From contig CAITNS010000053.1 in the NCBI GenBank assembly GCA_903893815.1, forward strand, positions 129,826 through 193,825: DNA of 64,000 nt, given 5' to 3'. Below the pieces are notes generated by a model that saw nothing but the letters and a program-made list of their open reading frames with translations, was not told the origin of the DNA and ran no database searches. The translations under genes were made by a program, and so were the position numbers. Source of the DNA: an uncultured Bacteroidota bacterium. GTDB taxonomy: Bacteria; Bacteroidota; Bacteroidia; B-17B0; Aurantibacillaceae. The number at the start of each line of letters is the position of its first letter. Position 1 is the first letter of the stretch. Shown here in pieces: positions 9,683 through 31,331 of this stretch.

Positions 9683-9753
9683 TTAATGGCATAAATAATT
9701 AATGCTACAATTTATAGCAGGTGCCTATATTTTAATTTTGTACTTTTACACTA

Positions 9754-10782
9754 ATGAACGAGAATTTAGACGCCAATAACGACAAACTATCCAATACTGA
9801 TAAGGATTATGAAAAAGCCTTACGTCCTGTGGAGTTTAACGACTTTAGTGGGCAAGAATCGGTGGTGGACAATTTGCGCATCTTTGTTCAGGCAGCTAAA
9901 CAGCGTGAGGAAGCTTTGGATCATGTTTTATTGCACGGTCCTCCCGGTTTAGGAAAAACCACCTTAGCACATATTATTTCAAATGACTTAGGCGTTAATT
10001 TAAGAGTGACTAGCGGTCCTGTATTGGATAAGCCAGGCGATTTAGCAGGTTTACTGACTAATTTGGAACCATTTGATGTGTTGTTTGTAGATGAGATTCA
10101 TCGTTTAAGTCCTATAGTAGAAGAGTATTTATACTCTGCTATGGAAGATTACAAGATTGACATTATGATTGATAGCGGACCTAACGCAAGAACGGTTCAA
10201 ATAAAATTAAATCCTTTTACATTAGTTGGAGCTACTACGCGTAGTGGTTTATTAACGGCTCCATTACGTGCACGTTTTGGAATTACATCGCGTTTAAATT
10301 ATTACGATAGTAAAGTATTAACAGGCATTGTGCAACGTAGTTCTGCTATTTTAGGTTTAGAGATTGCTGATGAAGCAGCTTACGAAATTGCCAGAAGAAG
10401 CCGAGGAACACCGAGGATTGCAAATGCCTTATTACGTCGTGTAAGAGATTTTGCTCAAATAAAAGGAGATGGTACTATCAATATTGATATTGCAACTTAT
10501 GGATTAAAAGCCTTAAACGTTGATAAAAACGGATTAGATGAAATGGATATTCGTATTTTATCAGCCATCATCGATAAATTTAAAGGCGGACCAGTTGGAA
10601 TTACTACGATTAGTACAGCCGTTGGTGAAGAATCAGGTACAATTGAAGAAGTATATGAACCTTTTTTAATACAAGAAGGTTATATGAGTCGCACACCGCG
10701 CGGACGCGAAGCAACTGAAAAAGCATATAAGCACTTAGGAAAATCCTATAGAGGCAGAATGGGCGGATTGTTTGAAGACTAA
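9754..10782 (+). CDS. ruvB: Holliday junction branch migration DNA helicase RuvB
   Basis: Walker [12 protein letters not shown], Walker B/sensor [10 protein letters not shown] and [16 protein letters not shown] are typical RuvB. Confidence 0.95.
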
Positions 10783-10787
10783 CTTTT

Positions 10788-11110
10788 ATGAATGTGCTTT
10801 TTATATGTAGTAGAAATAAATGGAGAAGTTTAACAGCCGAAACTATTTATAAAAATTATTCTAAAATAACATTAAAATCAGCCGGAACAGAACCAAGCGC
10901 AAGAATTAAAATATCTGAAAAATTAGTGAATTGGGCAGATATAATTTTTGCAATGGAAAAAAACATAATCAACGGTTAAATGAAAAATTCGAATCAGCTT
11001 GTATTGATAAAGAAATTATAATTCTTGATATTGCTGATGAATATAATTACATGAATCCAGAATTAATAGAATTATTAAAAGATTCAGTAGACCATTATTT
11101 AGAATTATAA
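10788..11110 (+). pseudogene. low-molecular-weight phosphotyrosine-phosphatase-like protein, interrupted by a -1 frameshift
   Basis: The N-terminal part has the CX5RS P-loop (CSRNKWRS) and stops at 10979. The next frame continues a coherent C-terminus [49 protein letters not shown], ending at 11110. The switch lies at the A7 run 10957-10963; A8 would restore a single ORF. Confidence 0.7.
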
Positions 11111-11111
11111 T

Positions 11112-12038
11112 TTGGGAAAAACTAAACATACTCAAATCATTAAACAAGAAGCCAAACGTTTAGGTTTTGATTTTTGTGGCATTAGCAAAGCCGAATTTTT
11201 AGAAGAAGAAGCGCCTAAATTAGAGGCATGGCTAAAAGCGGGAATGCATGGCAAAATGGAATACATGGAAAACCATTTTGATAAACGTTTAAATCCTACG
11301 TTATTAGTGGAAGGCGCAAAATCTGTTGTATCCTTATTGTACAATTATTATCCTGAACAAACACAAACTTCAGAAGCTCCAAAAATTTCGAAATATGCTT
11401 ATGGTTATGATTACCATGAAGTCATCAAAGAGAAACTAAAAGAATTTTTAAATACCCTAAAAGAAAAAATTGGCGACGTAAACGGGAGAGCCTTTGTAGA
11501 TAGTGCGCCAGTTTTGGATAAAGCCTGGGCTAAGAAAAGTGGTTTAGGTTGGATTGGAAAAAATGCCAACCTCATTAATAAACAAAACGGTTCTTTCTTT
11601 TTTATTGCAGAGTTAATTATTGATTTAGATTTAGAATATGACGGCCCTATACAAGACTATTGTGGCACCTGTACCAAATGTATTGACGCCTGCCCTACGG
11701 AAGCCATTGTAGAACCTTTTATAGTGGATGGCAGCAAATGCATTAGTTATTTAACCATTGAATTAAAAGACGCGATCCCAAGTGAATTTAAAAACAAAAT
11801 GGATAATTGGGCATTTGGTTGTGATGTTTGTCAAGATGTTTGTCCATGGAGCAGATTTAGTACACCGCATCACGAAGCTCAATTTAATAACCAAACTGGT
11901 TTATTAAATTTTAGTACAAATGAATGGCACGAAATGACTGAGGAAACATTTAACAAAGTATTTAAACATAGCGCGGTTAAACGTACTAAGTATAAAGGCT
12001 TAAAGAGGAATTTAGAATTTATAAAGCCACTTAGATAA
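11112..12038 (+). CDS. queG: tRNA epoxyqueuosine(34) reductase QueG
   Basis: Two ferredoxin-type clusters [12 protein letters not shown] and [10 protein letters not shown]. The N-terminal layout is typical of QueG. TTG start. Confidence 0.88.
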
Positions 12039-12040
12039 AA

Positions 12041-13081
12041 TTATTTTTGTTTACCTAAATTCAATTGCCATTTCCAAGCGCTTAGCATCATTTCATCCAG
12101 TCCATTTTTTGGATCCCAACCTAATTCCTGCTTAGCTAAATTATTGTTAGCATAAATTTTAATCACGTCTCCTGCTCTTCTTTCTCCTACTTTATAATTC
12201 AACTTTTGTTCACTCACTTTTTCAAATGATTGAATTGCTTCAAATACGGTTACTCCATTTCCTGTTCCTAAATTAAAGATAGACGTATTTGTTTTTTGAT
12301 TATCATTAATCACATAATTCATTGCTTTTACATGAGCATCTGCAATATCACTTACATGAATATAATCTCTAATACAAGAGCCATCGCGAGTATCGTAATC
12401 ATCTCCAAAAACAGTTAACGGAGGTAATATCCCAACAGCACTTTGAGTAATAAATGGCACTAAATTATTTGGTTTATCTTTTGACAATTCACCGTTTAAT
12501 CCTGAATTATGAGCTCCAACAGGGTTGAAATAACGCAACAAAACGGCTTTAAAGGCGGGATTACTTTTAACGTAATTAATCAAAATATCTTCTCCAATTT
12601 GTTTGGTGTGCGCGTACGGCGATTCTGCTTTCGAAAACGGTGTATCCTCTGTTACAGGCAATTTATCAACGTTACCATAAACTGAGCAAGAAGAAGAGAA
12701 GATGAAATTTTTGATTTGAAGTTTTTCTGAAATTTTTAAAAGATTGATCAGCGACTCCAAATTATTATGATAATAGGTTAAAGGCATATTAACCGAATCG
12801 CCCACCGCTTTAAATGCAGCAAAATGAATGATTCCTATTGGATTTTTAATTGTACCAAAAGCTAACTCTAATGCTTCTAGGTTACAAATATCCACATTTA
12901 AATTTTTAACGCGTTTACCTGTGATAGATTCAATTCTATCAAAAGTATCAGCATTTGAGTTAGAGAAATTATCTATTGAAACGATTATATAATCTGTTTG
13001 TTGTAATAGTTCAATAATAGTATGAGAGCCAATATAACCAGCGCCTCCGGTAACAATAATAGTTGGTGTTTGATTTGACAT
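12041..13081 (-). CDS. galE: UDP-glucose 4-epimerase GalE
   Basis: Rossmann motif GGAGYIGSH, catalytic YAHTK (YxxxK) and overall GalE-like length. Confidence 0.85.
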   Translation of the reverse strand: MSNQTPTIIVTGGAGYIGSHTIIELLQQTDYIIVSIDNFSNSNADTFDRIESITGKRVKNLNVDICNLEALELAFGTIKNPIGIIHFAAFKAVGDSVNMPLTYYHNNLESLINLLKISEKLQIKNFIFSSSCSVYGNVDKLPVTEDTPFSKAESPYAHTKQIGEDILINYVKSNPAFKAVLLRYFNPVGAHNSGLNGELSKDKPNNLVPFITQSAVGILPPLTVFGDDYDTRDGSCIRDYIHVSDIADAHVKAMNYVINDNQKTNTSIFNLGTGNGVTVFEAIQSFEKVSEQKLNYKVGERRAGDVIKIYANNNLAKQELGWDPKNGLDEMMLSAWKWQLNLGKQK

Positions 13082-13092
13082 TTTAAAATATT

Positions 13093-14325
13093 TTAATTAA
13101 ATGAGTTATAAACGCTTGCATATTTTTCAATACCATCTTGTAAAGAAAAATAGCTTGAAGCAGCTGTAACAGTATTACTCATGTACAAGTTACGATTTTC
13201 TAATAAATCAGAAACCGCCTGTTGATATTCTCTTTTGTTAAAATCAGAAACAATAACTCCACACTTAGTTTCATCAATAATACTATCAACATCGCCAACA
13301 CCGGCATTTGTTACTATAGGAACTTGCATAGATAATAATTCGCCCATTTTGGTAGGAGATGATGCTGATTTAGAAAATGAAGGTCTAATGAAAAATAAAG
13401 AGGCAGATGATAATGAAATGTAATAAGGCATATCTACTCTTGATGAAGAAATAACAGTTAATTTATCAAGAGGTACTTGATGTTTTGCTGCCGCTTGATG
13501 AACTAATTCCTCGTTATCTTTTGTGATAATTAAAAAATGACTGTCTATTTTATCAGATAATTCTTTAAAAAACTCAAGCATCTCATCAGCCATATACCAA
13601 GTACCTAAAGAACCAACGTAGCTTAACACAAATTTATTTTTAAGTTGAGGGAATCTATCCTGAAATGCAATAAAATGCTTTTCTTCAATGTTATTTTTAG
13701 AGAAATGATCTAAATCTGCACAACAAGGAATAACGGTAATTTTAGAATCATTAATTCCCAAATTCCAATTTAAAATAATTGATTTTGCTTTGTTGGTTAA
13801 TGAAATAATCGCATCAGAATTTACGAGCATCTCTTTTTCTTTTTTCTTAAAGTATTTATATAAATAAGCTCCAATTGGGCTAGATTTTTTCCAAATACCA
13901 CCTTCAATTCTCTCATCCGCCCAAAAGCCGCGCATATCAAAAATAAAACCTGTGTTAAACTTTTGCTTAGCGTTTAACCCAATTAAACCCGCCAAATAAC
14001 TTCTACAATGCAAAATCGTTTGACCTTCCGTATCTTTAATTTTCCGGAAAACTATTCTTTTAAGTGATTTGAAATTTTGTTGTTGCGATATAAAAGGCTT
14101 TCCAGTTTTATAAAAAGAATAGTCCCATGATATATTAGCTTCACTCGTGATTTTTTCAATAATTTTGTGATGTAATTTCCAGTTTCCTTTTTTCTCGCAA
14201 CTCACAATTTCAATTTTATTTCCTTTACTTGCTAAAACTACCAAATAGGGTAAAACTTGTGACTGTCCTAAAGGGTCGGTCATCCCATCGATAGAAACAA
14301 ATATAAAGGTTTTGATATTGGTCAT
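13093..14325 (-). CDS. glycosyltransferase family 4 (GT-B fold)
   Basis: GT4-like N-terminus FVSIDGMTDPLGQSQVL and a C-terminal nucleotide-sugar binding region (PTKMGELLSMQVPIVTN). Confidence 0.75.
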   Translation of the reverse strand: MTNIKTFIFVSIDGMTDPLGQSQVLPYLVVLASKGNKIEIVSCEKKGNWKLHHKIIEKITSEANISWDYSFYKTGKPFISQQQNFKSLKRIVFRKIKDTEGQTILHCRSYLAGLIGLNAKQKFNTGFIFDMRGFWADERIEGGIWKKSSPIGAYLYKYFKKKEKEMLVNSDAIISLTNKAKSIILNWNLGINDSKITVIPCCADLDHFSKNNIEEKHFIAFQDRFPQLKNKFVLSYVGSLGTWYMADEMLEFFKELSDKIDSHFLIITKDNEELVHQAAAKHQVPLDKLTVISSSRVDMPYYISLSSASLFFIRPSFSKSASSPTKMGELLSMQVPIVTNAGVGDVDSIIDETKCGVIVSDFNKREYQQAVSDLLENRNLYMSNTVTAASSYFSLQDGIEKYASVYNSFN

Positions 14326-14419: not shown

Positions 14420-15760
14420 ATGAACAATAATCTAACCATTTTTGACATTTTATTGCCTCCTTTTTATATATTGGCAGCAATCGCCTATGGTTATTGGATT
14501 ACTAAAAAAAATATTAGAACAAATCCTGAATATGAATATTTTACACGTGGTTTAATTGTTCGCATTTTTGGTGCTATTGCATTAGGCCTGATTTACTTTT
14601 TTTATTATTCAGGAGGTGACACAACTAACTATTTTCAAACTTCATCAGCATATTCAAAATTAATGTTTAAAGACTTGGATAGCTTTTGGATAGGCTGGCT
14701 TGGAGATGCTAAACATTACTATTTTTCATTTGATGATTCAACTGGTTATCCAGTTTATACTCCAAAAGATCATCATTCATTTTTCGTAGTAAGACTTTTA
14801 ATTCCTATTGTAACGTTGGGCTGTCATTCTTATTTTCCAACTGCTGTATTAGTTGGTTGTATTACATATGGCGGTATGTGGAAACTATACCAAACCTTTT
14901 TACTAGAATTTCCCAACTTAAAAAGGGAGTTTGCCATTGCCTGTTTATTTATTCCTTCTTGCGTCTTTTGGGGTTCAGGATTAATGAAAGATTCTTTTAC
15001 ATTATCTGCGGTGGGTTGGTTTACATTTGCATTTTATCACTTTTTTATCAAAAAACAACGTAAAGTATCCTATGGATTGTATTTGTTTATCGCAGCTTTC
15101 GTCATATTAGCAATTAAACCTTATATCTTTTTTGCGCTCTTACCTGGGTCGATACTATGGTTAAGTAATAATACAGTCAAAAAGATTAATCATGGCTTTA
15201 TAAAAATGATAGCTTCACCAATTATTTTAGGTCTAGGAATCATTTCTGGTTATTATGCTTTAGATAATATGGGGGACAATTTAGGTCAATATAAATTAGA
15301 TACAGTTTTAGATAAAGCTGTTGTGACACAAAAAGACATGAAGGCAGAATATTATGGTGGAAAAACCTACGACATTGGAGAATTTGATGCTAGTATTGGT
15401 GGAATAGCATCTAAAGCCCCAATAGCCATTTTTTCAGGAATATTTAGACCAGGCATATGGGATGTACGAAATCCAGTAATGCTTATATCATCATTAGAAA
15501 ACACATATCTTTTATTTTTAACTATATTCCTTCTTATAAAACTAAAGGTTTTTGGATTCTTTTTTTTAATTAGAAAGAACCCCATGCTTTTGTTTTGTAT
15601 GTTATTCTCTTTATTCTTCGCATTTTCTGTTGGACTAACGGTTGCCAATTTCGGATCTTTAGTGAGGCTAAGATTACCGGAATTACCATTTTTTGTAGCG
15701 GGAATATTTATGTTGAGACATTTATACGAAAAGCAAAGCGGAGTAAAAATGAAATTTTAA
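14420..15760 (+). CDS. polytopic membrane protein, possible EpsG/Wzy-like polymerase
   Basis: About 10 predicted hydrophobic helices, an SGGDTTNY motif after the second helix (resembling the EpsG-family GxDxxxY) and a large soluble loop near residues 285-335. The function is tentative. Confidence 0.55.
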   Translation: MNNNLTIFDILLPPFYILAAIAYGYWITKKNIRTNPEYEYFTRGLIVRIFGAIALGLIYFFYYSGGDTTNYFQTSSAYSKLMFKDLDSFWIGWLGDAKHYYFSFDDSTGYPVYTPKDHHSFFVVRLLIPIVTLGCHSYFPTAVLVGCITYGGMWKLYQTFLLEFPNLKREFAIACLFIPSCVFWGSGLMKDSFTLSAVGWFTFAFYHFFIKKQRKVSYGLYLFIAAFVILAIKPYIFFALLPGSILWLSNNTVKKINHGFIKMIASPIILGLGIISGYYALDNMGDNLGQYKLDTVLDKAVVTQKDMKAEYYGGKTYDIGEFDASIGGIASKAPIAIFSGIFRPGIWDVRNPVMLISSLENTYLLFLTIFLLIKLKVFGFFFLIRKNPMLLFCMLFSLFFAFSVGLTVANFGSLVRLRLPELPFFVAGIFMLRHLYEKQSGVKMKF

Positions 15761-17661
15761 TTCATCCACTTTTCATACCACATTTGGAACATTAAGGCAT
15801 ACCAAAGTTTCAATGCTAGTTCTTTTTTGCCAGAATAAAAATCGGATTTTATTATATGGATAAATTCGATATTAAACACCCCTTGTTGATTAATTTTTTT
15901 ATCATCTAAATAATAATGTACTTTATCTTTCAAATCATTTATTAACCAATTTTCAATGGGAATAGCAAATCCCATTTTTGGTCTATCCATTAATTGCTTT
16001 GGAATATATTGATGAACAATTTCTTTAATAATATGTTTTTTGCTTCCTTTATAATATTTATAGTCATCGGGCAATTGAGCGGCCCATTCTATGATGCGGT
16101 GATCTAAAAAAGGCTCTCTGCCTTCTAAACTCACGGTCATAGAGGCTCTATCAACTTTTTGTAAAATATCATCTACTAGATACGTTTGATAATCAATAGC
16201 CATCATATATGCTAAAGGAGAATAACTTATCTTTTTTAGTTCGTTGCTTTGATACGCAGTTTCAAAAAAACCGGTTTTAGTTTTCATTAATTCACTTATC
16301 TCTTTTTCATCAAATTGCCTGCTCAAATTCAGCATCATGTTTTTCGGTGAAGGATCTTTTAGTAAACCTTTTAATTTTTCATATCTGCTATGAAAATTAT
16401 ATTTATTTTTCATAATAGGAATTTTATCAGATGGGATAAAATTCATAATATCAGCAGTGCCTTTTCTAAGTAACCTTGGAAATTGATTTAATCTTTTACC
16501 ATATTTCATCAAATAATCGTAGCGATTATATCCAGCAAAAATTTCATCACCTGCATCTGCACTTAACGCAACAGTTACTTGTTGTTTAGCCATTTTACAT
16601 ACTAAAGTAGTAGGGATGGCGCTGCTATCAGCAAATGGTTCATCATAAAAGAAAGGTAAATCATCAATTAAACTGAGCGATTCATTATAAGTACACACAT
16701 ACTCATAATGCTCTGTTCCTAAATGTTTAGCAACATCTTTAGCATAAGGAGCCTCATTTAAGCCAATATCAGGCACTGCAATAGTATATGTTTTTAATTT
16801 TTCAGTTCTATCTTTTTGAAGCAATGCAGTTACGCATGCACTATCATAGCCACCACTTAAAAATACACCAACAGGTACGTCAGAAATCATACGATAATCA
16901 AAAGCTGATTTTAATATTTTTTCTGTTTCTATTTTTGCATCTTCAAAATTAATATCTAGTTTAGGCTTATTATAAGAATCGTAAACATCCCAATATTTGT
17001 GAGTTGAAAAATCAGAACTAGCAAGAGATAAGCGTAAATAATAACCAGGTTTTAATTTATAACAATTATTAAAAATACAATGTGGAGTTGGAACATTTCC
17101 AAACTGCATAAAAGCCGCCACAGCATCTAAATTTAGTTCTTTATGAAATCTTGGGTGCTTATGAAAAGCTTTTAGTTCAGAAGCAAATAAAAACAATCCA
17201 TCCTTCCAATAATAAAAAAACGGCTTCACACCAGCTCTATCTCTTACACATAAGATTTCTTCTTTTATTGTGTCATATATCACAAATGCAAACATGCCAA
17301 TAAATTTTTGGATACATGAAATTCCCCACTCAGCAAAAGCATGTAATATAACCTCAGTATCTGAATGTCCGCAAAACTTATGCTTTAAAATAATTAATTC
17401 CTGTTTAATTTCATTATAATTATAAATTTCTCCATTGAAAGTAATCCACAAATGCTCAAATTGCATAGGTTGTTTCCCAGCATCAGTCAAATCTATAATA
17501 GACAATCTTCTATGTCCTAATCCAACTTGACAAGTTTTGGTTTGAAGAAATTCTAATCCGCTTCCATCTGGTCCTCTATGATAGAGGGTATCAGACATTA
17601 TTTGAAGCACATCAAATGAAGAGCTTTGTTTAAAATCTATTAAGCCTGAAATACCACACAT
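15757..17661 (-). CDS. asparagine synthase (glutamine-hydrolysing)-type amidotransferase, copy 1
   Basis: MCGISG Ntn-glutaminase nucleophile, HRGPDG, RRLSIIDL and the PP-loop FLSGGYDS. 634 aa. Confidence 0.9.
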   Translation of the reverse strand: MCGISGLIDFKQSSSFDVLQIMSDTLYHRGPDGSGLEFLQTKTCQVGLGHRRLSIIDLTDAGKQPMQFEHLWITFNGEIYNYNEIKQELIILKHKFCGHSDTEVILHAFAEWGISCIQKFIGMFAFVIYDTIKEEILCVRDRAGVKPFFYYWKDGLFLFASELKAFHKHPRFHKELNLDAVAAFMQFGNVPTPHCIFNNCYKLKPGYYLRLSLASSDFSTHKYWDVYDSYNKPKLDINFEDAKIETEKILKSAFDYRMISDVPVGVFLSGGYDSACVTALLQKDRTEKLKTYTIAVPDIGLNEAPYAKDVAKHLGTEHYEYVCTYNESLSLIDDLPFFYDEPFADSSAIPTTLVCKMAKQQVTVALSADAGDEIFAGYNRYDYLMKYGKRLNQFPRLLRKGTADIMNFIPSDKIPIMKNKYNFHSRYEKLKGLLKDPSPKNMMLNLSRQFDEKEISELMKTKTGFFETAYQSNELKKISYSPLAYMMAIDYQTYLVDDILQKVDRASMTVSLEGREPFLDHRIIEWAAQLPDDYKYYKGSKKHIIKEIVHQYIPKQLMDRPKMGFAIPIENWLINDLKDKVHYYLDDKKINQQGVFNIEFIHIIKSDFYSGKKELALKLWYALMFQMWYEKWMN

Positions 17662-17664
17662 AAC

Positions 17665-18546
17665 TTACTCTGTTAATTCAACTTCTTTTTCTTTATATTT
17701 CAACTTAGAAGCTGTTTTTTCAATAATTTTTGATGGAACACGATGTTTAAAAAGGGTAAGTAAAATTAAAAATATATAAAAAAATGGTACCAAATACGTG
17801 GTAAATTTTGTTATGCGATGAAACAACAACATATTTTTTGCTGGAAATTCATTTACCTCGCCATACTGAACCTTCTCCATAATTTTATCAAATATAGGCC
17901 TAGCGATAATCCCATCATAAGCTAAAAAAAGAGAATCCTGATATTGTTTATAATAAGCAATACTTTCGTGATGATTGATGATTTTTTCCCAATTTGGCTC
18001 TAAATTAACGTCATACATGTGCCATTTACCATGATAATACACTTCAGCTAAAAAATGTCCAGGTCCCGCTTTATAACCAAGACCAACCCATCGTGCTTTA
18101 ATTCCTTTGCGTTTTAAAATTTCTAAAAACACGATAGTTTGTTGACTGCAAAGCCCTTGATTATAATCTAGAATATCATCAGGGTCAACAATAGCGACTA
18201 AATGATTCCAAAATAACTTGCCGCCGATATAAGTTATCCAATTATCTTTAATTGAATATTCTGATAAACCATGATAGAATCTTTTCTTAACAATATCACT
18301 TGTAGCTTTTATGTATGCAAGGGTATCTATTTCCGATGAAAGATGTGTGGCCGAATAAATACCATCAATATGTGCAGTGATGCCTTCTAAGCTTTTAAAT
18401 CTTGAAAGCTCAATATTAAATAACTCCTTGTTATTATAAGAGCTTTTTAAATTTGATACGGTAGAAAATACAATTGGTGTAATACTAATTGCTAACAATA
18501 TCAGATAGATAAATAGCCTAATTTTATAAGATTTAAGAAGAAACAA
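17665..18546 (-). CDS. membrane-anchored transglutaminase-like (papain-fold) protein
   Basis: N- and C-terminal hydrophobic helices. The core GLCSQQTIVFLEILKRKGIKARWV...GPGHFLAEVYYHGKWHMYDVN matches the Cys-His-Asp spacing of transglutaminase-like enzymes (Cys133 codon 18148-18150). Its stop lies 3 nt from the AsnB start. Confidence 0.6.
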   Translation of the reverse strand: MFLLKSYKIRLFIYLILLAISITPIVFSTVSNLKSSYNNKELFNIELSRFKSLEGITAHIDGIYSATHLSSEIDTLAYIKATSDIVKKRFYHGLSEYSIKDNWITYIGGKLFWNHLVAIVDPDDILDYNQGLCSQQTIVFLEILKRKGIKARWVGLGYKAGPGHFLAEVYYHGKWHMYDVNLEPNWEKIINHHESIAYYKQYQDSLFLAYDGIIARPIFDKIMEKVQYGEVNEFPAKNMLLFHRITKFTTYLVPFFYIFLILLTLFKHRVPSKIIEKTASKLKYKEKEVELTE

Positions 18547-18589: not shown

Positions 18590-19495
18590 TTAATTTAAAA
18601 ACAAATGTTTAATAAAAGCCAATGTCCTAATTCTAAACAATTCAAAGAGACTTTTTTTCAGTCCATTCATTAAGAATGTTATTGCGGATTGCTTATTACC
18701 AGAAAGTAACAAATGAAGCGCAGAATAAGTAAGCATATGAGCGTGTATTTTATTTATAATTTTTTGTCCGTATATCCCTACAAACATTTTATCGTTTAGT
18801 AAATTATTAACAATTAAATTTGTTCTTGTTAACAATTTAACCTCATTAAAACTCATTACGCTTCTTCCATCATGCTGAATCATACAACCAGATATTTGAG
18901 ACTGAAAATGTATTTTATAGCGAGCAGAAACTACTAACCATAATAACCAATCCTCAGAACCACTCAATGCTCTATCTTCTTCAAATTTTAAGTCTTTAAA
19001 AATATCGGCTTTCAAAAACATCCCGAAACAACTAAATATATTTCCTTTCAAGACAGCAATGTTTAAATTTTTATTCTTAGGATAATTCACTTTTCTTATC
19101 AATTCATTATTTTGATTTCTAAATTCGTAAGCACAATGAAAAACTTTTACATCTTTCTTCTTTAAAATGAAATCTGAAGCTAAAGCCAAATGATTTGAAT
19201 AAAACACATCATCAGAATCTAAAAAAGTAATAAAGTTTCCACGTGATTTTTGAATACCATAATTTCTAGCAGCCCCCCTTTCTCCATTTGATTTATAATG
19301 ATAGTGCCAATTTTTTATTTGATAATTACTGATATAATCTGCAACAGTTTCTTTTGTGTTATCAGAACTCCCATCATCTATTATAAGTAGTTCATAATTT
19401 TTAAAGTGCTGGTCTCTGATACTATCAAGCGTTTTTAAAATTAAATGAGCTCTATTATATGTGGGGATTATAATTGAAAATACAGGCGTTTCCAC
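18590..19495 (-). CDS. glycosyltransferase family 2
   Basis: FSIIIPTYNR, DDGSSDNT and DSDD (DxD) motifs. Confidence 0.85.
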   Translation of the reverse strand: METPVFSIIIPTYNRAHLILKTLDSIRDQHFKNYELLIIDDGSSDNTKETVADYISNYQIKNWHYHYKSNGERGAARNYGIQKSRGNFITFLDSDDVFYSNHLALASDFILKKKDVKVFHCAYEFRNQNNELIRKVNYPKNKNLNIAVLKGNIFSCFGMFLKADIFKDLKFEEDRALSGSEDWLLWLVVSARYKIHFQSQISGCMIQHDGRSVMSFNEVKLLTRTNLIVNNLLNDKMFVGIYGQKIINKIHAHMLTYSALHLLLSGNKQSAITFLMNGLKKSLFELFRIRTLAFIKHLFLN

Positions 19496-20652: not shown

Positions 20653-21423
20653 TTAATTTTTACTTTGCAATAACTGTACATCAAACAAATCATGAATATT
20701 TAAAAAATCTTCCTTTAAAATTTTACTGTTTTTTAAAAAAACATCATATCCATTTATAGTTACAAATTCATAAATTTCATCAAGTGAACCACCAAATTTC
20801 TCTATAGCACCTGGATGAAGGGCTAAATTTATTTTTGGCATATCTCTTGAAATTGTATTTTGTAACCCTTTTAAAACAAGATACTCTGCACCTTCAGCAT
20901 CAATCTTCACAAAATTAATCCGTGAAATATTGCTTGATTCAACAAAACTATCAATAGATAAAACGTCAACGTTTACACCTTCATTACCAGTACTATCTGT
21001 AAATGGAATGAGACTATTTGAAGCGTCTACAGAATGTCTGGAAACTCTAAAAAAAGCAGTTGTATTTCTATCGGCTATTGCTTTTTGATAAGCAATAACA
21101 TTTTTATTCAAACCATTAATTGCAATCATTTCAGAGAAATAATGAAACGTTTCGGGTGTAGGTTCAAATGAGAATACTTTTCCTTTATTCCCAACTAAAT
21201 CTGAAAAAATTTTAGTCATTAATCCTAGTTGAGCTCCGATGTCAATAACGAAATCGCCTTCTTTTACTTCTTTTTTAAAAAAAGCAATGTTTTCAGTTTC
21301 ATAATCCTGTGGATAGTATTTATAAAATCTGATTGGCAATCGAAGGGTCGTTCCTGAAATTGTAGTTTTTACGCCTTTATTTTTAAAAATAATTTCTAAT
21401 ATCTTATATATAATATTTTTCAT
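20653..21423 (-). CDS. FkbM family methyltransferase
   Basis: SAM motif VIDIGAQLGLMT and the FkbM-type VKIDAEGAEYLVLKG. Confidence 0.8.
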   Translation of the reverse strand: MKNIIYKILEIIFKNKGVKTTISGTTLRLPIRFYKYYPQDYETENIAFFKKEVKEGDFVIDIGAQLGLMTKIFSDLVGNKGKVFSFEPTPETFHYFSEMIAINGLNKNVIAYQKAIADRNTTAFFRVSRHSVDASNSLIPFTDSTGNEGVNVDVLSIDSFVESSNISRINFVKIDAEGAEYLVLKGLQNTISRDMPKINLALHPGAIEKFGGSLDEIYEFVTINGYDVFLKNSKILKEDFLNIHDLFDVQLLQSKN

Positions 21424-21488
21424 ATTGTGGTTTTATGCTGTTCTATAGATTTAGCTCAAAATAGCTTTGTATTTGAAGTTAAAAGAAA

Positions 21489-22628
21489 TTATTTACCATT
21501 GTATACTTTCTCCAATTTATATATCATGTCCTTCACATCAAATTTATCATATATATCAATTTTAGCCTGAGCTATAATCTTACGTTTAAGCTCATCATTT
21601 TCCATTAATAATTTTAAACCTTCATAGATTGCTTCAGAATTCTGATAATCAACGACTACTGCATTACTTCTATCAACAATATACTCTTCAGCAACTCCTG
21701 ATAAGGTACAAATCATTGGAACAGATGCAGCCATCACTTCAACATAAACTTGACCAAACGCTTCTATTTCTGAATCAATTGGAACATGTACAAAGTAATC
21801 AAATGTATTAATAAGCGCAAATACATCATCTTCATAAGGAATTTCGGTATAAGTTTTTGGGTCGAGTTCTTTTAAAAGAGAATGAATAAAATCTTCCCTT
21901 ATTCCACCTGCATTTGCAAGTATAAGTTTAGCATTAGGAAAGACTGACACAATTTTTTTAAATGCTTCAATCGTATACTCAACGCCTTTCCATTCATCAT
22001 ATCTTGAAATAGATCCAATAACAATAGACACGTCATTTAAGTTATATTTTTCTTTAATGGCTGCAAGTCTGTTGTTATTAATATTCGAAAACATTGATAA
22101 ATCAAAGCCATGATGCACTTTTTTTATTTTATTAAACTGCACGTTTTCAAAATCCATTAATACTTTTGTGACAACGTCTGATATTGATATAATGGATGTG
22201 GAAATTTTATTAAAATATTTTTCAAAGTTTCGCGTACCTTTCAAATACCGATATCGTTGTGTAGTTGTATGTCTGGTATAAACTCTAACAGGTACTCTCA
22301 TGATCCAAGCAGCTGTTAATCCCAATAAATTAGCGTCAAAATAATGCGTATGAACAACGTGCGGTTTAAATTTAATGATCTCAAGCATTAGTTTACAAAT
22401 TGTAAAAAGCATTTCTAATTTATTTTTTCCTGAATAATTTATACGTTTATAAGGTATGCCTGTTTCTAAAATATATTTTTCGAAATTTGAATCTTTATTA
22501 TCTATATGCAATAGTAAAACATCGTAACCTCTTTCTTTTAATTTATTGCCAATCCACTCATAGGCAATTGCCCTACCTTTTAAGTGAGAGGTTATTAATA
22601 TGACTTTCTTATTTTTAAAAGTACTCAT
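21489..22628 (-). CDS. glycosyltransferase family 4
   Basis: GT-B layout. C-terminal EAFGQVYVEVMAASVPMICT matches the GT4 nucleotide-sugar binding motif. Confidence 0.8.
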   Translation of the reverse strand: MSTFKNKKVILITSHLKGRAIAYEWIGNKLKERGYDVLLLHIDNKDSNFEKYILETGIPYKRINYSGKNKLEMLFTICKLMLEIIKFKPHVVHTHYFDANLLGLTAAWIMRVPVRVYTRHTTTQRYRYLKGTRNFEKYFNKISTSIISISDVVTKVLMDFENVQFNKIKKVHHGFDLSMFSNINNNRLAAIKEKYNLNDVSIVIGSISRYDEWKGVEYTIEAFKKIVSVFPNAKLILANAGGIREDFIHSLLKELDPKTYTEIPYEDDVFALINTFDYFVHVPIDSEIEAFGQVYVEVMAASVPMICTLSGVAEEYIVDRSNAVVVDYQNSEAIYEGLKLLMENDELKRKIIAQAKIDIYDKFDVKDMIYKLEKVYNGK

Positions 22629-22632
22629 TCGG

Positions 22633-23589
22633 CTAATTAAATGCTTGTTTAATGCGGTCTTTTAACCAATACAATCCGTCATAGATTTCTTTCCAAGGTT
22701 TTAAAGAGATACATGAAGCACGCAACGTGTAATAAAAACCTGAGATGATATTTTTAAAACGCAAATCAAATAAACCTTTGTCTTTGAATATGAAAAACTC
22801 ATTTGTCTTTTGGATTTTAATTAAAAATTCCTTGTTACTGTTTTTCTCCAGCACTTTTGTGTTTAAATATGTTTTTAATTTCAACCTCACCAATCTTTTC
22901 GCCTCCCACATTCTTTTGTGATTACTACTCATATTAACGTCATGCGACCTGATAAGTGTAGCTGTTTCATCTGCTTTTAAATAATGAAAAACGGCATCAT
23001 TTAAAATAAATCTAAACCAAAAATCCCAGTCTTCTAATGATTTTAATGTGATATCAAATTCACCAATTTCTTGTACTATAGATTTGTGAAATAATGGCGC
23101 GCTCACTAAAAAAACATTGTCCTTAACCAAATGTGGCAAAACATCTGTGTATTTACCTGAAATTTCAGGTATATCACGCCATGTAAATATGCCTTTTTTG
23201 TTGTTTTCCTTTGTAAAATGCTTTATAGCACCATATACCAATTTTACTGATTCGTTATTTTCTAAAAGTTCAACGTGTTCTTTAAGTTTTTCATTTTCAA
23301 TCAAATCATCTGCATCAAGTAACTGAATATACTTCCCTAATGAATGTTTGATACCCGTATTCCTAGAAGCTGAAAGCCCCTGATTTTTTTGGTAAATGTA
23401 TTTAATCCTATTATCCTTAATAGTGTATTGTTTAACTACTTCCGCACTATTATCCGCAGAACCATCGTCAACAACAATACATTCCCAATCGCTAAAGGTT
23501 TGATGTAAAATACAATCTAAAGTTTCTGGCAAAAATTGCGCATAATTATAACAAGGAATTATTATACTTACTACAACATTGTTTGCCAT
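22633..23589 (-). CDS. glycosyltransferase family 2
   Basis: VSIIIPCYN, DDGSADNS and LDADD motifs. Confidence 0.85.
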   Translation of the reverse strand: MANNVVVSIIIPCYNYAQFLPETLDCILHQTFSDWECIVVDDGSADNSAEVVKQYTIKDNRIKYIYQKNQGLSASRNTGIKHSLGKYIQLLDADDLIENEKLKEHVELLENNESVKLVYGAIKHFTKENNKKGIFTWRDIPEISGKYTDVLPHLVKDNVFLVSAPLFHKSIVQEIGEFDITLKSLEDWDFWFRFILNDAVFHYLKADETATLIRSHDVNMSSNHKRMWEAKRLVRLKLKTYLNTKVLEKNSNKEFLIKIQKTNEFFIFKDKGLFDLRFKNIISGFYYTLRASCISLKPWKEIYDGLYWLKDRIKQAFN

Positions 23590-23602
23590 GATTTATACTA
23601 TG

Positions 23603-24604
23603 TTATTTTAAATTAAGTTGAGAAGATTTAGCATCAATAATTTTCCCCAACTCACTATCTTTTACAAATAAGTAATTGTTAACTTTTTCAAAGTCAAGCT
23701 CGTTACTTTTTTTAATTTTTATAATCCTTGAAATATTTTGATCATCGCTTAATGCATAACAAGTATATTTTCTTTCATTTAAAAAATCAAAAATCTCAAT
23801 ACCCTCTGTATTATGGGACAAAATTTCTGTCAATATAACAGGAGAAAAGATGTCTAATGTATTTTTCCCAGCTTTTAAAATAGATAATTCATTTCCTTCG
23901 GTATCTATTTTTAAAATTTTTGGAGAAAGAGTTGTATTATTTTTCATGTAATCATCTAAAGTGATTGCTTGCACTTTTATTGCTTCAACAGTTCCTGAAG
24001 CCTTATCCATTTCAGCGTTTTCTTTAAATATGCTACTCATATATGATGATGGGGAAACATAAAATTCTAATTCTCCTGCTTTATCTGAAAGACATATATT
24101 TTCAAATTTATAGTTCGAGAACTTATTTTGATTAAACACATTTTCCGAAAAAACTTTCAGTTTGCTATTTGGTTCAAATAAAATTACTGGCCTATTAATA
24201 GATAATGGATATAAAGAACGCAAGCCCATATTGGCGCCAATATCGAAATAATGATAATTTGAAGGATAAAAATCATTAACAATAGCCTCTGCAATTGTTA
24301 AACATTTATCAGACCATTTATAACTTAACGCAAATTCCCACGACTTGATATCATTTGCTGAAACTGGAACTTCAACTATTTTTGAATTCAGTAATTTGAT
24401 TTTCCAATTAAAATTAAATGTAGGTTGCTTGGCATGCCCCCAAATATAGTTTATAAGCCATGATGGAGCCTTTTCGTAAATTGAATTTATAATAAAAACA
24501 CTATTTTTTTTTAGTAAAATTTTATTAATAAGTACCTGAATTACTTTTTTGCTTGAATTTTTAAATATCGAAACCATACTTTCGTTTTTAGCTATTGGAA
24601 CCAA
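23603..24604 (-). CDS. FkbM family methyltransferase
   Basis: FDIGANMGLRS SAM motif and KIDTEGNELSILKAG. An alternative start at 24577 would remove the 17-nt overlap with the upstream epimerase gene. Confidence 0.7.
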   Translation of the reverse strand: MVPIAKNESMVSIFKNSSKKVIQVLINKILLKKNSVFIINSIYEKAPSWLINYIWGHAKQPTFNFNWKIKLLNSKIVEVPVSANDIKSWEFALSYKWSDKCLTIAEAIVNDFYPSNYHYFDIGANMGLRSLYPLSINRPVILFEPNSKLKVFSENVFNQNKFSNYKFENICLSDKAGELEFYVSPSSYMSSIFKENAEMDKASGTVEAIKVQAITLDDYMKNNTTLSPKILKIDTEGNELSILKAGKNTLDIFSPVILTEILSHNTEGIEIFDFLNERKYTCYALSDDQNISRIIKIKKSNELDFEKVNNYLFVKDSELGKIIDAKSSQLNLK

Positions 24605-25541
24605 GCCACGTTTTAAATTTCATTAAACCTGACAGTAAATCTATTTTTGGATCGTACCCCAACATTCTTTTTGCTTTTTCAATATTAGCGTAGGTTATAG
24701 GAACATCGCCATCCTGATGAGGTAAATATTTAATGTTTGCTTTTATTTCAAAAACTGTTTCTAATGAAGCAATCAAATCATTTAAAGTTATTAAAGTGCT
24801 ATTTCCTAAATTAAAAATCTCATACTTAGATTGGTCGTAACTAATAGCTGCTATTATTCCATTCACTATATCATCAACATAAGTATAATCTCTTCCTGTT
24901 TTTCCATCTCCAAATACAGTTATAGCCTCATTATTCATTAACATTTTTGAAAATTTGTGAATTGCTAAATCGGGTCTTTGTCGAGGTCCAAAAACAGTAA
25001 AAAATCTTAGCGCAATAAATCGGATATCATACAAATAGCTATAAGTATGTCCTAATAATTCTGCTGATATTTTAGATGATGCATACGGACTTATAGGCTG
25101 TAATTGTTTGTCTGATTCAGACCATGGCAATTGGGAATTTATACCATATACACTGCTTGATGAGGCGAAAACAAACTGTTTAATTTTATTCAACTTGGCA
25201 AACTCCAAAAGATTTTGTGTTCCTATCAAATTAACATTTTGATATGTAATAGGGTCTTTAATACTTGGGCCAACGCCAGCTTTTGCGGCTAAATGTATAA
25301 TCACGTCATAATTTCCAGATAAATTATTTTTCAATTTTTCAAAATCTAAAATATCAAGCTCGTGAAAACTAACATTAGGATTGCCTATTAAATAGGCAAT
25401 ATTTTGTTGTTTTATCGCTTTATCATAAAAGGGATCAAAATTATCGATGGATGTAATTTTATAGCCTCCAATTTCAATTAATTTATCAATTAAATTACTG
25501 CCAATAAATCCAGCACCTCCAGTAATTAATAGTTTCTTCAT
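24588..25541 (-). CDS. NAD-dependent epimerase/dehydratase, UDP-glucuronate 4-epimerase-like
   Basis: GGAGFIGSN, YASSK (YxxxK) and LRFFTVFGPRQRPDLAIHKF closely resemble the UDP-GlcA 4-epimerase subgroup of extended SDRs. Confidence 0.75.
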   Translation of the reverse strand: MKKLLITGGAGFIGSNLIDKLIEIGGYKITSIDNFDPFYDKAIKQQNIAYLIGNPNVSFHELDILDFEKLKNNLSGNYDVIIHLAAKAGVGPSIKDPITYQNVNLIGTQNLLEFAKLNKIKQFVFASSSSVYGINSQLPWSESDKQLQPISPYASSKISAELLGHTYSYLYDIRFIALRFFTVFGPRQRPDLAIHKFSKMLMNNEAITVFGDGKTGRDYTYVDDIVNGIIAAISYDQSKYEIFNLGNSTLITLNDLIASLETVFEIKANIKYLPHQDGDVPITYANIEKAKRMLGYDPKIDLLSGLMKFKTWLGSNS

Positions 25542-25590
25542 ATAATAATTTTTAATAGTGTAAAAAACACTTCATAAATATATGAAAATA

Positions 25591-26727
25591 CTACAAAACA
25601 GACTCAATTAGCTTACTGTAATTACTAAACATTTTTTGTGGCGAAAACTCCTGTTCTGCTCTACGCAGATTCATTTGTGCGATTTTTCCTCTCAAATCAT
25701 CATTATCTATAAATGTTAAAATATGATTTGCAAATGCTTGATAATCAGAAATTGCAGCTAAATAGGGGTAATCATCTCCTAGCGCTTCACGTATACCAAT
25801 AATATCCGTGGCTACCATGGGCAACTCTGCATTCATACACTCTAACACACCATTTGGACAACCTTCAAAACGGGAGCTAAAAACTCCCAAATCTGTCACG
25901 CTCAATAAACCAGCAATATCGTCTACTTGATCTAAAAATCTAACATTACTCTCAATATTTAGCTCCTGAGCTTGTAATTTTAATTCTTCATATTTATGAT
26001 CAAACCTCCCGGCTAAAAACAAAATTGGCGTCTTATTTTTTGTATTGTCACAAACTATTTTCCAAGCATCCAATAATGTTTTATGATCTTTGTAACCATG
26101 CAAATTGGCAATCATTGTTGCCACAAAATGCTTTTCATTTATGTTTAAAGTATTCTTCCAGTACTCTTTTGATTTGATTGGGTTTGGTAAGTTTACAGAA
26201 TTATGAATTAACCGAATATTATCTTTTTTAATATTTAAGTGATTTGCAAGAAATAATCTTCCTTCTTCAGAATTTGAAACAAAAACTGGTGCTTTCTTTA
26301 ACGCATATTCTTCCAATGCATGATTTGTAACTCCTCTTCCTTCGTCCCTTTGATTCCATAAACAAGTTTTGGCTCCAGTGAAATTCCAAATGGCGCAGCA
26401 AATTACATTTGGCCAGTAGGTAAAAGGCATTATTATGTCGGGTTTAAACTTTCGAATCGCAATTATCAACTTAATCAGTTCCTTTATTCTCTTTATTTTT
26501 CCAGCGTATCTATCTAGCGGATGTAATTTCCAAGGCACGCCTAACTCATCTAATAATTCAGCTCCCTTACCAGCTCTATCAATAGCCCAGACCTCAACAT
26601 TACATTTCTCTGTGTTTTTTAAATAACCCGAAAGTAGGATTGCTTGCTTTTCGGCACCCCCCATTAAAAGGGTGTCTAAAAAAATAAGTATTTTTTTTTC
26701 TGATAAAGTGTTTCTAGTTTTTTTCAT
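25591..26727 (-). CDS. glycosyltransferase family 4
   Basis: GT-B layout. FEGCPNGVLECMNAELPMVATD is a GT4 motif. The start abuts the upstream AsnB stop. Confidence 0.8.
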   Translation of the reverse strand: MKKTRNTLSEKKILIFLDTLLMGGAEKQAILLSGYLKNTEKCNVEVWAIDRAGKGAELLDELGVPWKLHPLDRYAGKIKRIKELIKLIIAIRKFKPDIIMPFTYWPNVICCAIWNFTGAKTCLWNQRDEGRGVTNHALEEYALKKAPVFVSNSEEGRLFLANHLNIKKDNIRLIHNSVNLPNPIKSKEYWKNTLNINEKHFVATMIANLHGYKDHKTLLDAWKIVCDNTKNKTPILFLAGRFDHKYEELKLQAQELNIESNVRFLDQVDDIAGLLSVTDLGVFSSRFEGCPNGVLECMNAELPMVATDIIGIREALGDDYPYLAAISDYQAFANHILTFIDNDDLRGKIAQMNLRRAEQEFSPQKMFSNYSKLIESVL

Positions 26728-28614: not shown

Positions 28615-28627
28615 TATTTAACGTTTC

Positions 28628-29380
28628 TTACTTAACTTTTTTCACTACACAAACTAAATGAGGATAAATAATTTCCTCATCCTTTTTCAGAATATTTGAG
28701 TTAATTAAGAAATTCTTAATTCGCCGCTTGAAAGTCAAATTAGTATTTTTCATTGCAGGCTGAGAAAAATTTGTAGTGAATATATCTACCAACTTCAAGC
28801 CTTTTTGTTCCACGTATTTAGTCAATGAATTTTTAGACCAACTACGTTCATGCTGCCAACGGTGAAATTCATGGTCGCAACTCGGACAATAAATCATTGA
28901 TTTACTTAAATCTTCATTATTTGGCGTTGTAAATATTGCTACGCCATCATCAGAAAGAAATTCTTTCATGTCGTTAAAAACATCGTCTAAATATTTATCA
29001 CTTAAATGTTCAATTACTTCAACAACAATTATCAAATCATACTTAAGTCCGTTTTTTCTAATTTCCTCCTGACTAACAGCCCCAACAAAATTGGGCTCAT
29101 TTTTAAACTTTCTTGAAACTTCATCTCGCGATATGTCAGAGAATTCTAATGCAGATGTATTTAATCCTTTTTTTAGTATATATGGAATCAAAAAACCCGG
29201 GCCAGAACCATAATCAAGAGCAGATTTCGCATTTATAAAATATTTATGCAGAAAATCAATAACATTTTCACCAACCTGAAACGTGAAATAATTTTCTTTA
29301 TGCTGCGCTTCATAGTCCCAAAACTTTTTTACATTTTCAGATGTCCATATTAATTTTTTGTATTCTTTTTTTTGTACCAT
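28628..29380 (-). CDS. class I SAM-dependent methyltransferase
   Basis: SAM-binding ALDYGSGPGF, followed by a Cys/His pattern (CPSCDHEFHRWQHE) near the C-terminus. Confidence 0.7.
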   Translation of the reverse strand: MVQKKEYKKLIWTSENVKKFWDYEAQHKENYFTFQVGENVIDFLHKYFINAKSALDYGSGPGFLIPYILKKGLNTSALEFSDISRDEVSRKFKNEPNFVGAVSQEEIRKNGLKYDLIIVVEVIEHLSDKYLDDVFNDMKEFLSDDGVAIFTTPNNEDLSKSMIYCPSCDHEFHRWQHERSWSKNSLTKYVEQKGLKLVDIFTTNFSQPAMKNTNLTFKRRIKNFLINSNILKKDEEIIYPHLVCVVKKVK

Positions 29381-29450
29381 AAGTTTTTGTATAAAGGCTG
29401 TTTAGCAGTATTTTACTAAATTAATGTTTTATTATTAAAAACAATAAAAC

Positions 29451-30572: not shown

Positions 30573-30578
30573 TGAGAT

Positions 30579-31316: not shown

Positions 31317-31331
31317 AAAATAATTTAAAAT

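Follow-up and report, generated by a model that had tools for sequence, protein, structure and literature searches.

Editing of polysaccharide amides after export is known from one characterised case. WbmE from Bordetella bronchiseptica is a periplasmic deamidase of the transglutaminase superfamily that acts on the uronamides of the O-antigen (King et al. 2009, PMC2615507). This enzyme, whose triad is formed by C165, H201 and D216, converts L-GalNAc3NAcAN to L-GalNAc3NAcA in the complete lipopolysaccharide (LPS), once it has been exported (PMC2615507). The wbm locus follows the ATP-binding cassette (ABC) transporter model and carries the genes of three glutamine-dependent amidotransferases, wbmC, wbmI and wbmZ; wbmE is Bvg-regulated, and deamidation may adjust the surface charge (PMC2615507). 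This report deals with a membrane-tethered transglutaminase-like protein (TG) and a glutamine-dependent amidotransferase (AsnB1) encoded side by side in an uncultured Bacteroidota bacterium of the family Aurantibacillaceae. The DNA analysed, hereafter the window, is a stretch of 64,000 nucleotides from contig CAITNS010000053.1 (assembly GCA_903893815.1). Both genes belong to a surface polysaccharide locus, and TG and AsnB1 might work, in an account that we hold with about even confidence, by amidating a sugar inside the cell and reworking the amide outside it.

Other systems share one half of this pair. WbpS of Pseudomonas aeruginosa, WbqG of Escherichia coli O121 and PGN_1234 of Porphyromonas gingivalis have been assigned to the family TIGR03108, and the formation of uronamides requires WbqG and PGN_1234 (PMC7468200). 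With respect to membrane-bound transglutaminase-like proteins, TgpA (PA2873) of P. aeruginosa is anchored in the inner membrane and possesses a periplasmic PF01841 domain with a conserved triad, this domain being active as a transglutaminase in vitro (PMC3507681). TgpA is important for viability and measures 668 aa (688 aa is also given in the paper); it has six helices and a DUF3488 region (PMC3507681). In the literature searched, WbmE was the only polysaccharide-acting enzyme of transglutaminase fold to turn up, and no description of a Bacteroidota counterpart of the TG/AsnB pair was found.

The transglutaminase-like protein and AsnB1

TG matches the Pfam family Transglut_core (PF01841) over residues 121-179 with 25.7 bits, the cut-off being 23, and 24 out of 39 TG homologs match this family individually (E≤0.01). 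In the alignment of the 39 sequences, whose identity goes down to 44%, C133, H164 and D179 are invariant, and so are the contexts in which they lie, (G/A)(L/I)CSQQ, GHFL.E and W..(Y/H/F)D..EP.W. A protein collection reduced at 90% identity contains 286 homologs, nearly all of them unnamed or called hypothetical. With E≤1e-3 as the limit, a profile search against 1.84 billion cluster representatives (50% identity) recovered 498 clusters; of the 150 that were listed, nearly all have 200-340 aa and most match most of the profile, including both terminal helices. This abundance indicates that TG is not a chance open reading frame (ORF). The family is unannotated, without a dedicated Pfam or NCBIfam model, and comes mainly from environmental Bacteroidota. 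Comparison of TG and of its family profile with PDB sequences gave nothing useful, only a chance match to tachylectin at E 1.9, and a tblastn search of plasmids with TG gave no match. In one relative of 576 aa (P0504), the N-terminal half is methyltransferase-like and the C-terminal half TG-like, with the catalytic Cys substituted (TPAQQS); this fusion could represent a degenerate form or one with a regulatory function.

The AlphaFold model of TG, built from the 39-member alignment, has a mean pLDDT of 82.9 and a pTM of 0.78. All the coherent PDB matches that Foldseek finds for it belong to the transglutaminase-like superfamily: Rad4/XPC, the bacterial TGase 4xz7, the putative cysteine protease 3isr of Cytophaga, PNGase and the vasohibins. 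Further matches from this superfamily are arylamine N-acetyltransferase (NAT), the amide synthase GdmF and TglA. Weak as the structural matches are (E≥6e-3), their agreement, together with the Pfam match and the conserved residues, gives good support to a transglutaminase-like fold of TG with a putative catalytic triad.

Hydropathy windows above 1.6 are restricted to residues ~2-33 and ~245-270 of TG. Across the family, the mean net charge is about +2.4 in the ten residues before helix 1 and about +3.9 in the 15 residues after helix 2, while the domain-side flanks of the helices carry about +0.8 to +1.0. Since the termini are positive and the domain flanks less so, the positive-inside rule predicts that both termini are cytoplasmic and that the domain with the Cys-His-Asp triad is periplasmic. 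AsnB1 requires ATP and glutamine and has neither a signal sequence nor a membrane segment, which places it in the cytoplasm. Therefore, the two proteins would act on opposite sides of the membrane, one before and the other after export, an arrangement incompatible with a joint complex of the lasso type.

The TG stop codon TAA (17665-17667) is followed by GTT and then by the AsnB1 ATG at 17661, leaving a gap of only 3 nt, and the two genes are probably co-expressed. AsnB1 keeps the hallmarks of both of its domains, namely the N-terminal MCGISG with Cys2 and the PP-loop SGGYDS at residue 269, and its match to Asn_synthase in Pfam reaches 7e-90. It passes the generic glutamine-hydrolysing model TIGR01536 (452 vs 267 bits), while its top NCBIfam family, TIGR03108 (eps_aminotran_1), is matched with 568.5 bits, under the cut-off of 816.9 bits. 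A link to PEP-CTERM/exosortase systems, suggested by the best NCBIfam matches of AsnB1 and of the GT4 glycosyltransferase genes, was discarded because the scores fall far short of the cut-offs and the searches yielded no exosortase.

AsnB1 shares 38% identity over its full length (644 columns, E 9e-149) with the product of asnB in the O-antigen locus of E. coli O121, a gene taken as wbqG because wzy and two GT4 genes flank it. This is more than the 35% shared by AsnB1 with its own paralog AsnB2, which is also 35% identical to O121 WbqG. When the DNA of complete E. coli genomes was searched, matches appeared in 21 genomes only, and they correspond to the asnB of O-antigen loci (O121 and O65 among others). 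AsnB1, in view of its TIGR03108 score, is described here as WbqG-like and is not filed as a member of the XrtA-linked TIGR03108 equivalog. Judging from these relatives, it is best read as an amidotransferase of sugar carboxylates (uronic acids). With AsnB2 encoded in the variable part of the locus, amidation may affect more than a single residue of the glycan.

Much of this had been proposed in a first-pass annotation of the window, made from the letters alone, and the proposals stand. The hydrophobic helices at both ends of TG appear in the hydropathy windows and in the AlphaFold model (7-26 and 237-268), the positions given for Cys133, His164 and Asp179 are exact, and the assignment to transglutaminase- or papain-like enzymes agrees with the above-threshold Transglut_core match and the invariant triad. 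The 3-nt spacing to a 634-aa AsnB1 with MCGISG and SGGYDS is likewise correct, and the translational coupling proposed from it is presumptive. The view of AsnB1 as a true glutamine amidotransferase is supported, given Cys2, the PP-loop and the TIGR01536 score.

The polysaccharide locus and its conserved module

As had also been stated, the pair is embedded among glycosyltransferase (GT) and methyltransferase genes. The minus-strand glycan block extends from 12041 to 34280 and comprises GT2, GT4 and GT1-like glycosyltransferases, methyltransferases (three FkbM-type and two others), two epimerases, two AsnB and the exporter Wzm/Wzt, according to Pfam and NCBIfam (Table 1). The genes are arranged in the order Wzm, Wzt, methyltransferases, glycosyltransferases, SDR epimerase, AsnB2, GT2, TG, AsnB1, GT4c and GalE. 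The G+C content is 28-30% inside the locus and 34% in its flanks, a dip typical of polysaccharide loci. This is the architecture of an ABC-transporter-dependent polysaccharide locus, and its product is most likely a surface polysaccharide of O-antigen type.

Table 1. Features of the glycan locus discussed in the text, with positions in the window.
Feature	Position	Strand	Basis
UDP-glucose 4-epimerase GalE, end of the conserved module	12041..13081	-	TIGR01179, 363 bits vs 262-bit cut-off, and synteny
GT4 glycosyltransferase of the conserved module (GT4c)	13093..14325	-	Pfam
MEMB446, orphan polytopic membrane protein, 446 aa	14420..15760	+	ORF; no Pfam or NCBIfam match
AsnB1, glutamine-dependent amidotransferase of WbpS/WbqG type, 634 aa	15757..17661	-	Pfam GATase_7, GATase_6, Asn_synthase
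TG, membrane-tethered transglutaminase-like protein, 293 aa, TTG start	17665..18546	-	ORF and Pfam PF01841
C-terminal transmembrane helix of TG (predicted), residues ~248-266, followed by a Lys/Arg-rich tail	17749..17805	-	Hydropathy, model helix 237-268
Asp179 codon of TG (WH.YDV; MYDVN in TG)	18010..18012	-	Invariant in 39 homologs
His164 codon of TG (GPGHFL; GPGHFLAEV in TG)	18055..18057	-	Invariant in 39 homologs
Cys133 codon of TG, predicted nucleophile (GLCSQQ; GLCSQQT in TG)	18148..18150	-	Invariant in 39 homologs
N-terminal transmembrane helix of TG (predicted), residues ~11-30, preceded by K5, K8 and R10	18457..18516	-	Hydropathy, model helix 7-26, charge distribution
GT2 glycosyltransferase directly upstream of TG	18590..19495	-	Pfam
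AsnB2, second AsnB-type amidotransferase, variable part of the locus	26728..28614	-	Pfam/NCBIfam
Wzt, ABC-2 polysaccharide exporter	32213-33460	-	Pfam/NCBIfam
Wzm, ABC-2 polysaccharide exporter	33462-34280	-	Pfam/NCBIfam

TG relatives were compared at 58 genomic loci, nearly all from Bacteroidota metagenome-assembled genomes, plus two from Alphaproteobacteria and one from Sumerlaeota, by matching their ORFs to those of the window. Of 48 informative loci, 25 have an AsnB-type gene directly downstream of TG on the same strand (gap -50 to +44 nt), and nine others have one within the next four genes. Some AsnB-type gene is found inside ±10 kb of TG in 44 of 56 loci. GT2 is the immediate upstream neighbour of TG in 39/44 loci, while GT4c (downstream) and a MEMB446 homolog are present within six genes of TG in 37/44 and 36/44, respectively. 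The downstream AsnB genes are 49-80% identical to AsnB1, and those located in the variable upstream parts only 31-42%, indicating that AsnB1 is part of a conserved distal module constituted by GT2, TG, AsnB1, MEMB446, GT4c and GalE. This module abuts a variable, serotype-like region.

The full module (GT2, TG, AsnB, membrane protein and GT4) is present in a cultured species, Aurantibacillus circumpalustris (CP121197.1, positions 1391581-1412957, L059), and in the near-complete genome of Sphingobacteriaceae bacterium CNR22 (L060). The TG homologs of these two genomes have no Pfam annotation, and hhalign compares them with the family alignment at E 5e-30 and 8e-80, respectively. Outside Bacteroidota, an Allosphingosinicella sp. 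possesses a TG relative with the motifs ALCSQQ, RGHF and FDTD (L057, 9740..10657) that converges on a 677-aa AsnB (region 9740..12754) in a locus resembling those for exopolysaccharides, in which tblastn detects a Ugd-like gene. By our own reading, its neighbours would include a priming sugar transferase and a UDP-uronate 4-epimerase-like gene. The second alphaproteobacterial relative (L056) lies among glycolysis genes, without glycan context.

Eight loci were also sampled by means of MEMB446 instead of TG. Both TG and AsnB occur in five of them, namely L059, L060, L063 and the contigs of P0278 and P0260 (in these last two, TG was named solely from the size and position of the gene). L065, which is identical to L007, carries TG with WbuXYZ and no AsnB, and two loci (L064 and L066) lack both genes. 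AsnB1 without TG was found in none of the eight. In L007 (7380..9920) and L065 (11291..13834), the place of the missing AsnB1 is taken by a trio that TG abuts and that constitutes a non-homologous glutamine-dependent sugar amidotransferase: a WbuX-type N-acetyl sugar amidotransferase, HisH and the acetamidino-forming AglZ/HisF2. Another locus, L036, contains both the WbuX/HisH/AglZ trio and AsnB. TG is thus genuinely associated with amidotransferases that install nitrogen, and in more than one phylum, although the association is not obligatory.

L064 and L066 carry MEMB446, GT4c and GalE together, without TG, AsnB or the variable glycan region, from which it follows that the MEMB446-GT4c-GalE core is independent of the TG/AsnB pair. 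L066 contains a transposase and part of an acyltransferase at the expected site of the glycan locus. Proteins of 286 aa (L064) and 289 aa (L066) encoded near the MEMB446 gene were compared with TG, and neither of them is a homolog.

The stop codons of AsnB1 and MEMB446 overlap convergently by 4 nt (15757..15760), which leaves no space for a terminator; L063 shows the same overlap, and in L060 the two genes are 1 nt apart. MEMB446 has more than 1690 homologs, all hypothetical, and is better conserved than TG (84% identity where TG has 53%). A profile search of PDB sequences returned nothing. The AlphaFold model of MEMB446 (pLDDT 80.5, pTM 0.85) has as its sole coherent Foldseek matches enzymes of the GT-C class, namely the C-mannosyltransferase DPY19, STT3 and ArnT, with probabilities of 0.84-0.85, query TM-scores of 0.38-0.40 and weak E values (0.4-1.5); all the other matches have TM-scores of about 0.1-0.3. 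Two out of 51 homologs weakly match DUF2142 (best E 2e-4), a family of polytopic proteins from rhamnan cell-wall polysaccharide loci (PMC9746298). An invariant G-D-T-x-N-Y motif occupies residues 66-71 of MEMB446, after the second helix, with Gly being usual at position 65. In the GT-C fold, the catalytic acidic residue sits after the second helix, where MEMB446 has this motif. On the basis of the model, MEMB446 is a likely but unproven GT-C glycosyltransferase.

Other genes of the locus deserve a brief comment. A GtrB-like role of the GT2 upstream of TG was discarded, since, by our own reading, C-terminal membrane helices are absent from its sequence, and its best matches are of soluble type (TuaG, WcaA). 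Wzt is 415 aa long and ends in an extension (about 170 aa) matching no Pfam family, and the FkbM-type and other methyltransferases are encoded within 20653..32180. In E. coli O8/O9a, the C-terminal domain of Wzt reads the methylated terminus of the chain. The Wzt extension and the five methyltransferases of the locus recall such export systems. At the Wzm end, 34368..39344 of the plus strand encodes a 1658-aa protein with PKD repeats and a C-terminal sorting domain of type IX secretion, and homologs of this protein occupy the same locus border in L002, L009 and L020. It is conceivable that the glycan is linked to the anchoring of type IX cargo, as A-LPS is in Porphyromonas.

A proposed editing of amides across the membrane and its alternatives

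The reading that we prefer, as probable as not in our judgement, considers TG and AsnB1 as accessory enzymes of an ABC-transporter-dependent surface polysaccharide pathway, in which the glycan would be amidated in the cytoplasm and then deamidated or transamidated in the periplasm. AsnB1 would use glutamine and ATP to turn the carboxylate of a sugar, which the precedents suggest to be that at C6 of a uronic acid, into a primary amide, either on a nucleotide sugar or on the growing chain, and Wzm/Wzt would export the finished chain. TG, anchored in the inner membrane through its two terminal helices and with its Cys133-His164-Asp179 domain in the periplasm, would attack the carboxamide through Cys133, releasing ammonia and forming a thioester. 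If water resolved the thioester, the outcome would be deamidation to a charged uronic acid, as shown for Bordetella WbmE; its resolution by an amine would be a transamidation, which appears less probable than hydrolysis. The 3-nt gap and the probable co-expression of both genes suggest that the amide may be a transient group that masks charge or activates the sugar. The first-pass annotation had guessed that the pair forms or remodels amide-linked substituents of the glycan at the membrane, and as a general idea this is supported. It had also been unable to assign the pair to any characterised step of polysaccharide modification, but such a step is known from B. bronchiseptica WbmE (PMC2615507).

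Several observations weigh against this reading. The conservation of the TG/AsnB adjacency, on which the first-pass annotation had made its proposal depend, was confirmed as a recurrent pairing (25 of 48 loci adjacent, nine more within four genes) but not as an obligatory one, because an AsnB-type gene is missing downstream of TG in 14 of the 48 informative loci. About nine loci (e.g., L003, L006 and L011) have no AsnB-type gene within 10 kb and keep the TG triad intact, indicating that TG has no strict need for an adjacent amidotransferase. The linkage of TG to MEMB446 (36/44) and GT4c (37/44) is even slightly more constant than that to AsnB (34/48). With respect to the fold, the coherent structural matches came with weak Foldseek statistics (best E 6e-3, query TM-scores of 0.23-0.30), although the low TM-scores are partly due to the inclusion of two long membrane helices in the model. 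The similarity of TG to WbmE, judged from the published description of the latter, is shown at the superfamily level only, and WbmE is soluble after cleavage of its signal peptide whereas TG keeps a membrane helix at each end. Finally, a search with E. coli Ugd as query detected no UDP-sugar 6-dehydrogenase in the window or in any of the Bacteroidota loci fetched; outside two E. coli O-antigen loci, one of which is the source of the query, the sole match was in the alphaproteobacterial L057. As no such gene is nearby, the presence of a uronic acid in the glycan is unproven, being neither confirmed nor excluded.

Part of these observations would be explained if TG had MEMB446, GT4c and the upstream GT2 as its main partners and acted on a conserved portion of the glycoconjugate, AsnB1 being an optional decoration enzyme inserted next to it; TG could then remove N-acyl or peptidyl groups, trim an acceptor or process a periplasmic partner protein. 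We regard this explanation as possible but rather unlikely. Six of the 14 loci lacking AsnB have TG directly beside the MEMB446 gene (L003, L006, L007, L011, L020 and L026), the triad is invariant in members without AsnB such as P0043 and P0059, and MEMB446, GT4c and the upstream GT2 accompany TG in 36, 37 and 39 of 44 loci. In addition, amidases are known among enzymes of papain- and transglutaminase-like type, PNGase and the pseudomurein endoisopeptidases PeiW and PeiP being examples. However, the loci that contain MEMB446, GT4c and GalE and no TG (L064, L066) indicate that the core is not in need of TG, and TG and AsnB were gained or lost together in the eight loci sampled through MEMB446. 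Moreover, TG relatives outside Bacteroidota lack MEMB446 and yet one of them lies beside an AsnB gene, and in L007 AsnB1 is replaced by another glutamine amidotransferase system. In another alternative, which seems improbable to us, TG would be a periplasmic transamidase for which the carboxamide made by AsnB1 serves as an acyl donor, pre-activated at the expense of ATP, to be passed to an amine carried by a protein, by a lipid or by a second glycan. Candidate amines would be those of protein lysines, phosphatidylethanolamine and amino sugars, the glycan would be cross-linked or anchored where ATP is absent, and MEMB446 may act together with TG. The conversion of a carboxamide and an amine into an amide and ammonia is the defining chemistry of transglutaminases (PMC2615507), the periplasmic domain of TgpA is active as a transglutaminase in vitro (PMC3507681), the 3-nt spacing favours an obligatory two-step process over a regulated tuning, and tethering would hold TG near the export site. 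Nevertheless, WbmE, the sole characterised member acting on polysaccharides, only deamidates, and at some loci TG is present without AsnB.

The first-pass annotation had pointed out that enzymes of transglutaminase and Asn-synthetase fold, together with an ABC exporter, make up the enzymatic logic of lasso-peptide maturation. On such a reading, protease, lactam synthetase and exporter would serve the maturation of a lasso-like or other ribosomally synthesised and post-translationally modified peptide (RiPP) inside a glycan locus. This superficial combination of domains in one region is all that speaks for it. With the lasso cyclase model NF033535, AsnB1 reaches 227 bits (cut-off 525), and it retains the Cys2 nucleophile, and Pfam scans revealed no RRE/PqqD-type domain in the neighbouring genes. 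There is no space for a precursor either, since the intergenic gaps measure 3, 43 and 10 nt and, between 15.7 and 19.6 kb, all ORFs of at least 25 aa are nested in large genes. TG sits in the membrane and its domain is predicted to be extracytoplasmic, whereas the leader protease of lasso systems is cytoplasmic. The transporter is of the Wzm/Wzt ABC-2 type and is encoded 14 kb away from the pair, and the 58 loci are always syntenic with glycosyltransferases. The RiPP reading is thus effectively refuted.

If the preferred reading is correct, amidating a glycan inside the cell and reworking the amide outside it suggests a kind of glycan editing more general than the single Bordetella example implies, and TG hints at an anchored form of the enzyme, located where export takes place, in a family recurrently wired to sugar amidotransferases. 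Were TG a transamidase, the pair would amount to a relay of energy to the periplasm, a carbohydrate counterpart of Gln-Lys cross-linking in proteins. Independently of this, MEMB446, with its more than 1690 homologs, is flagged as a likely new GT-C-type enzyme. The presence of the module in the cultured A. circumpalustris makes the hypothesis directly testable.

Comparison with known systems

The lasso B protease and C cyclase resemble TG and AsnB1 only in the pairing of the two folds; the cyclase score, the precursor gene, the RRE domain, the compartment and the exporter type all fail. TgpA shares with TG the membrane anchoring, the periplasmic PF01841 domain (predicted in the case of TG) and the triad, but is larger, with six helices and DUF3488, and has not been reported in a glycan locus. 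The two domains of AsnB1 are arranged as in WbpS (P. aeruginosa O6), WbqG (E. coli O121) and PGN_1234, and AsnB1 is encoded in a polysaccharide locus. However, it remains under the TIGR03108 cut-off, and a transglutaminase-like partner is absent from the E. coli loci O121 and O65.

The kind of activity proposed here is already known from WbmE, the one characterised case of post-export amide editing in a polysaccharide, whereas the unannotated, two-helix-anchored TG family (498 clusters), its Bacteroidota host range and its synteny with an orphan GT-C-like membrane protein are new. WbmE belongs to Betaproteobacteria and its gene is Bvg-regulated, while the TG gene is 3 nt away from an amidotransferase gene and the TG/AsnB pair is linked to MEMB446. 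The Cys-His-Asp triad has similar spacings, namely of 36 and 15 residues in WbmE and of 31 and 15 residues in TG, and the periplasmic location shown for WbmE is predicted for TG. Both are encoded in ABC-transporter-dependent glycan loci that also contain glutamine-dependent amidotransferases (in the case of TG, Wzm/Wzt with AsnB1 and AsnB2), and the same logic, cytoplasmic amidation followed by amide chemistry after export, would be common to both.

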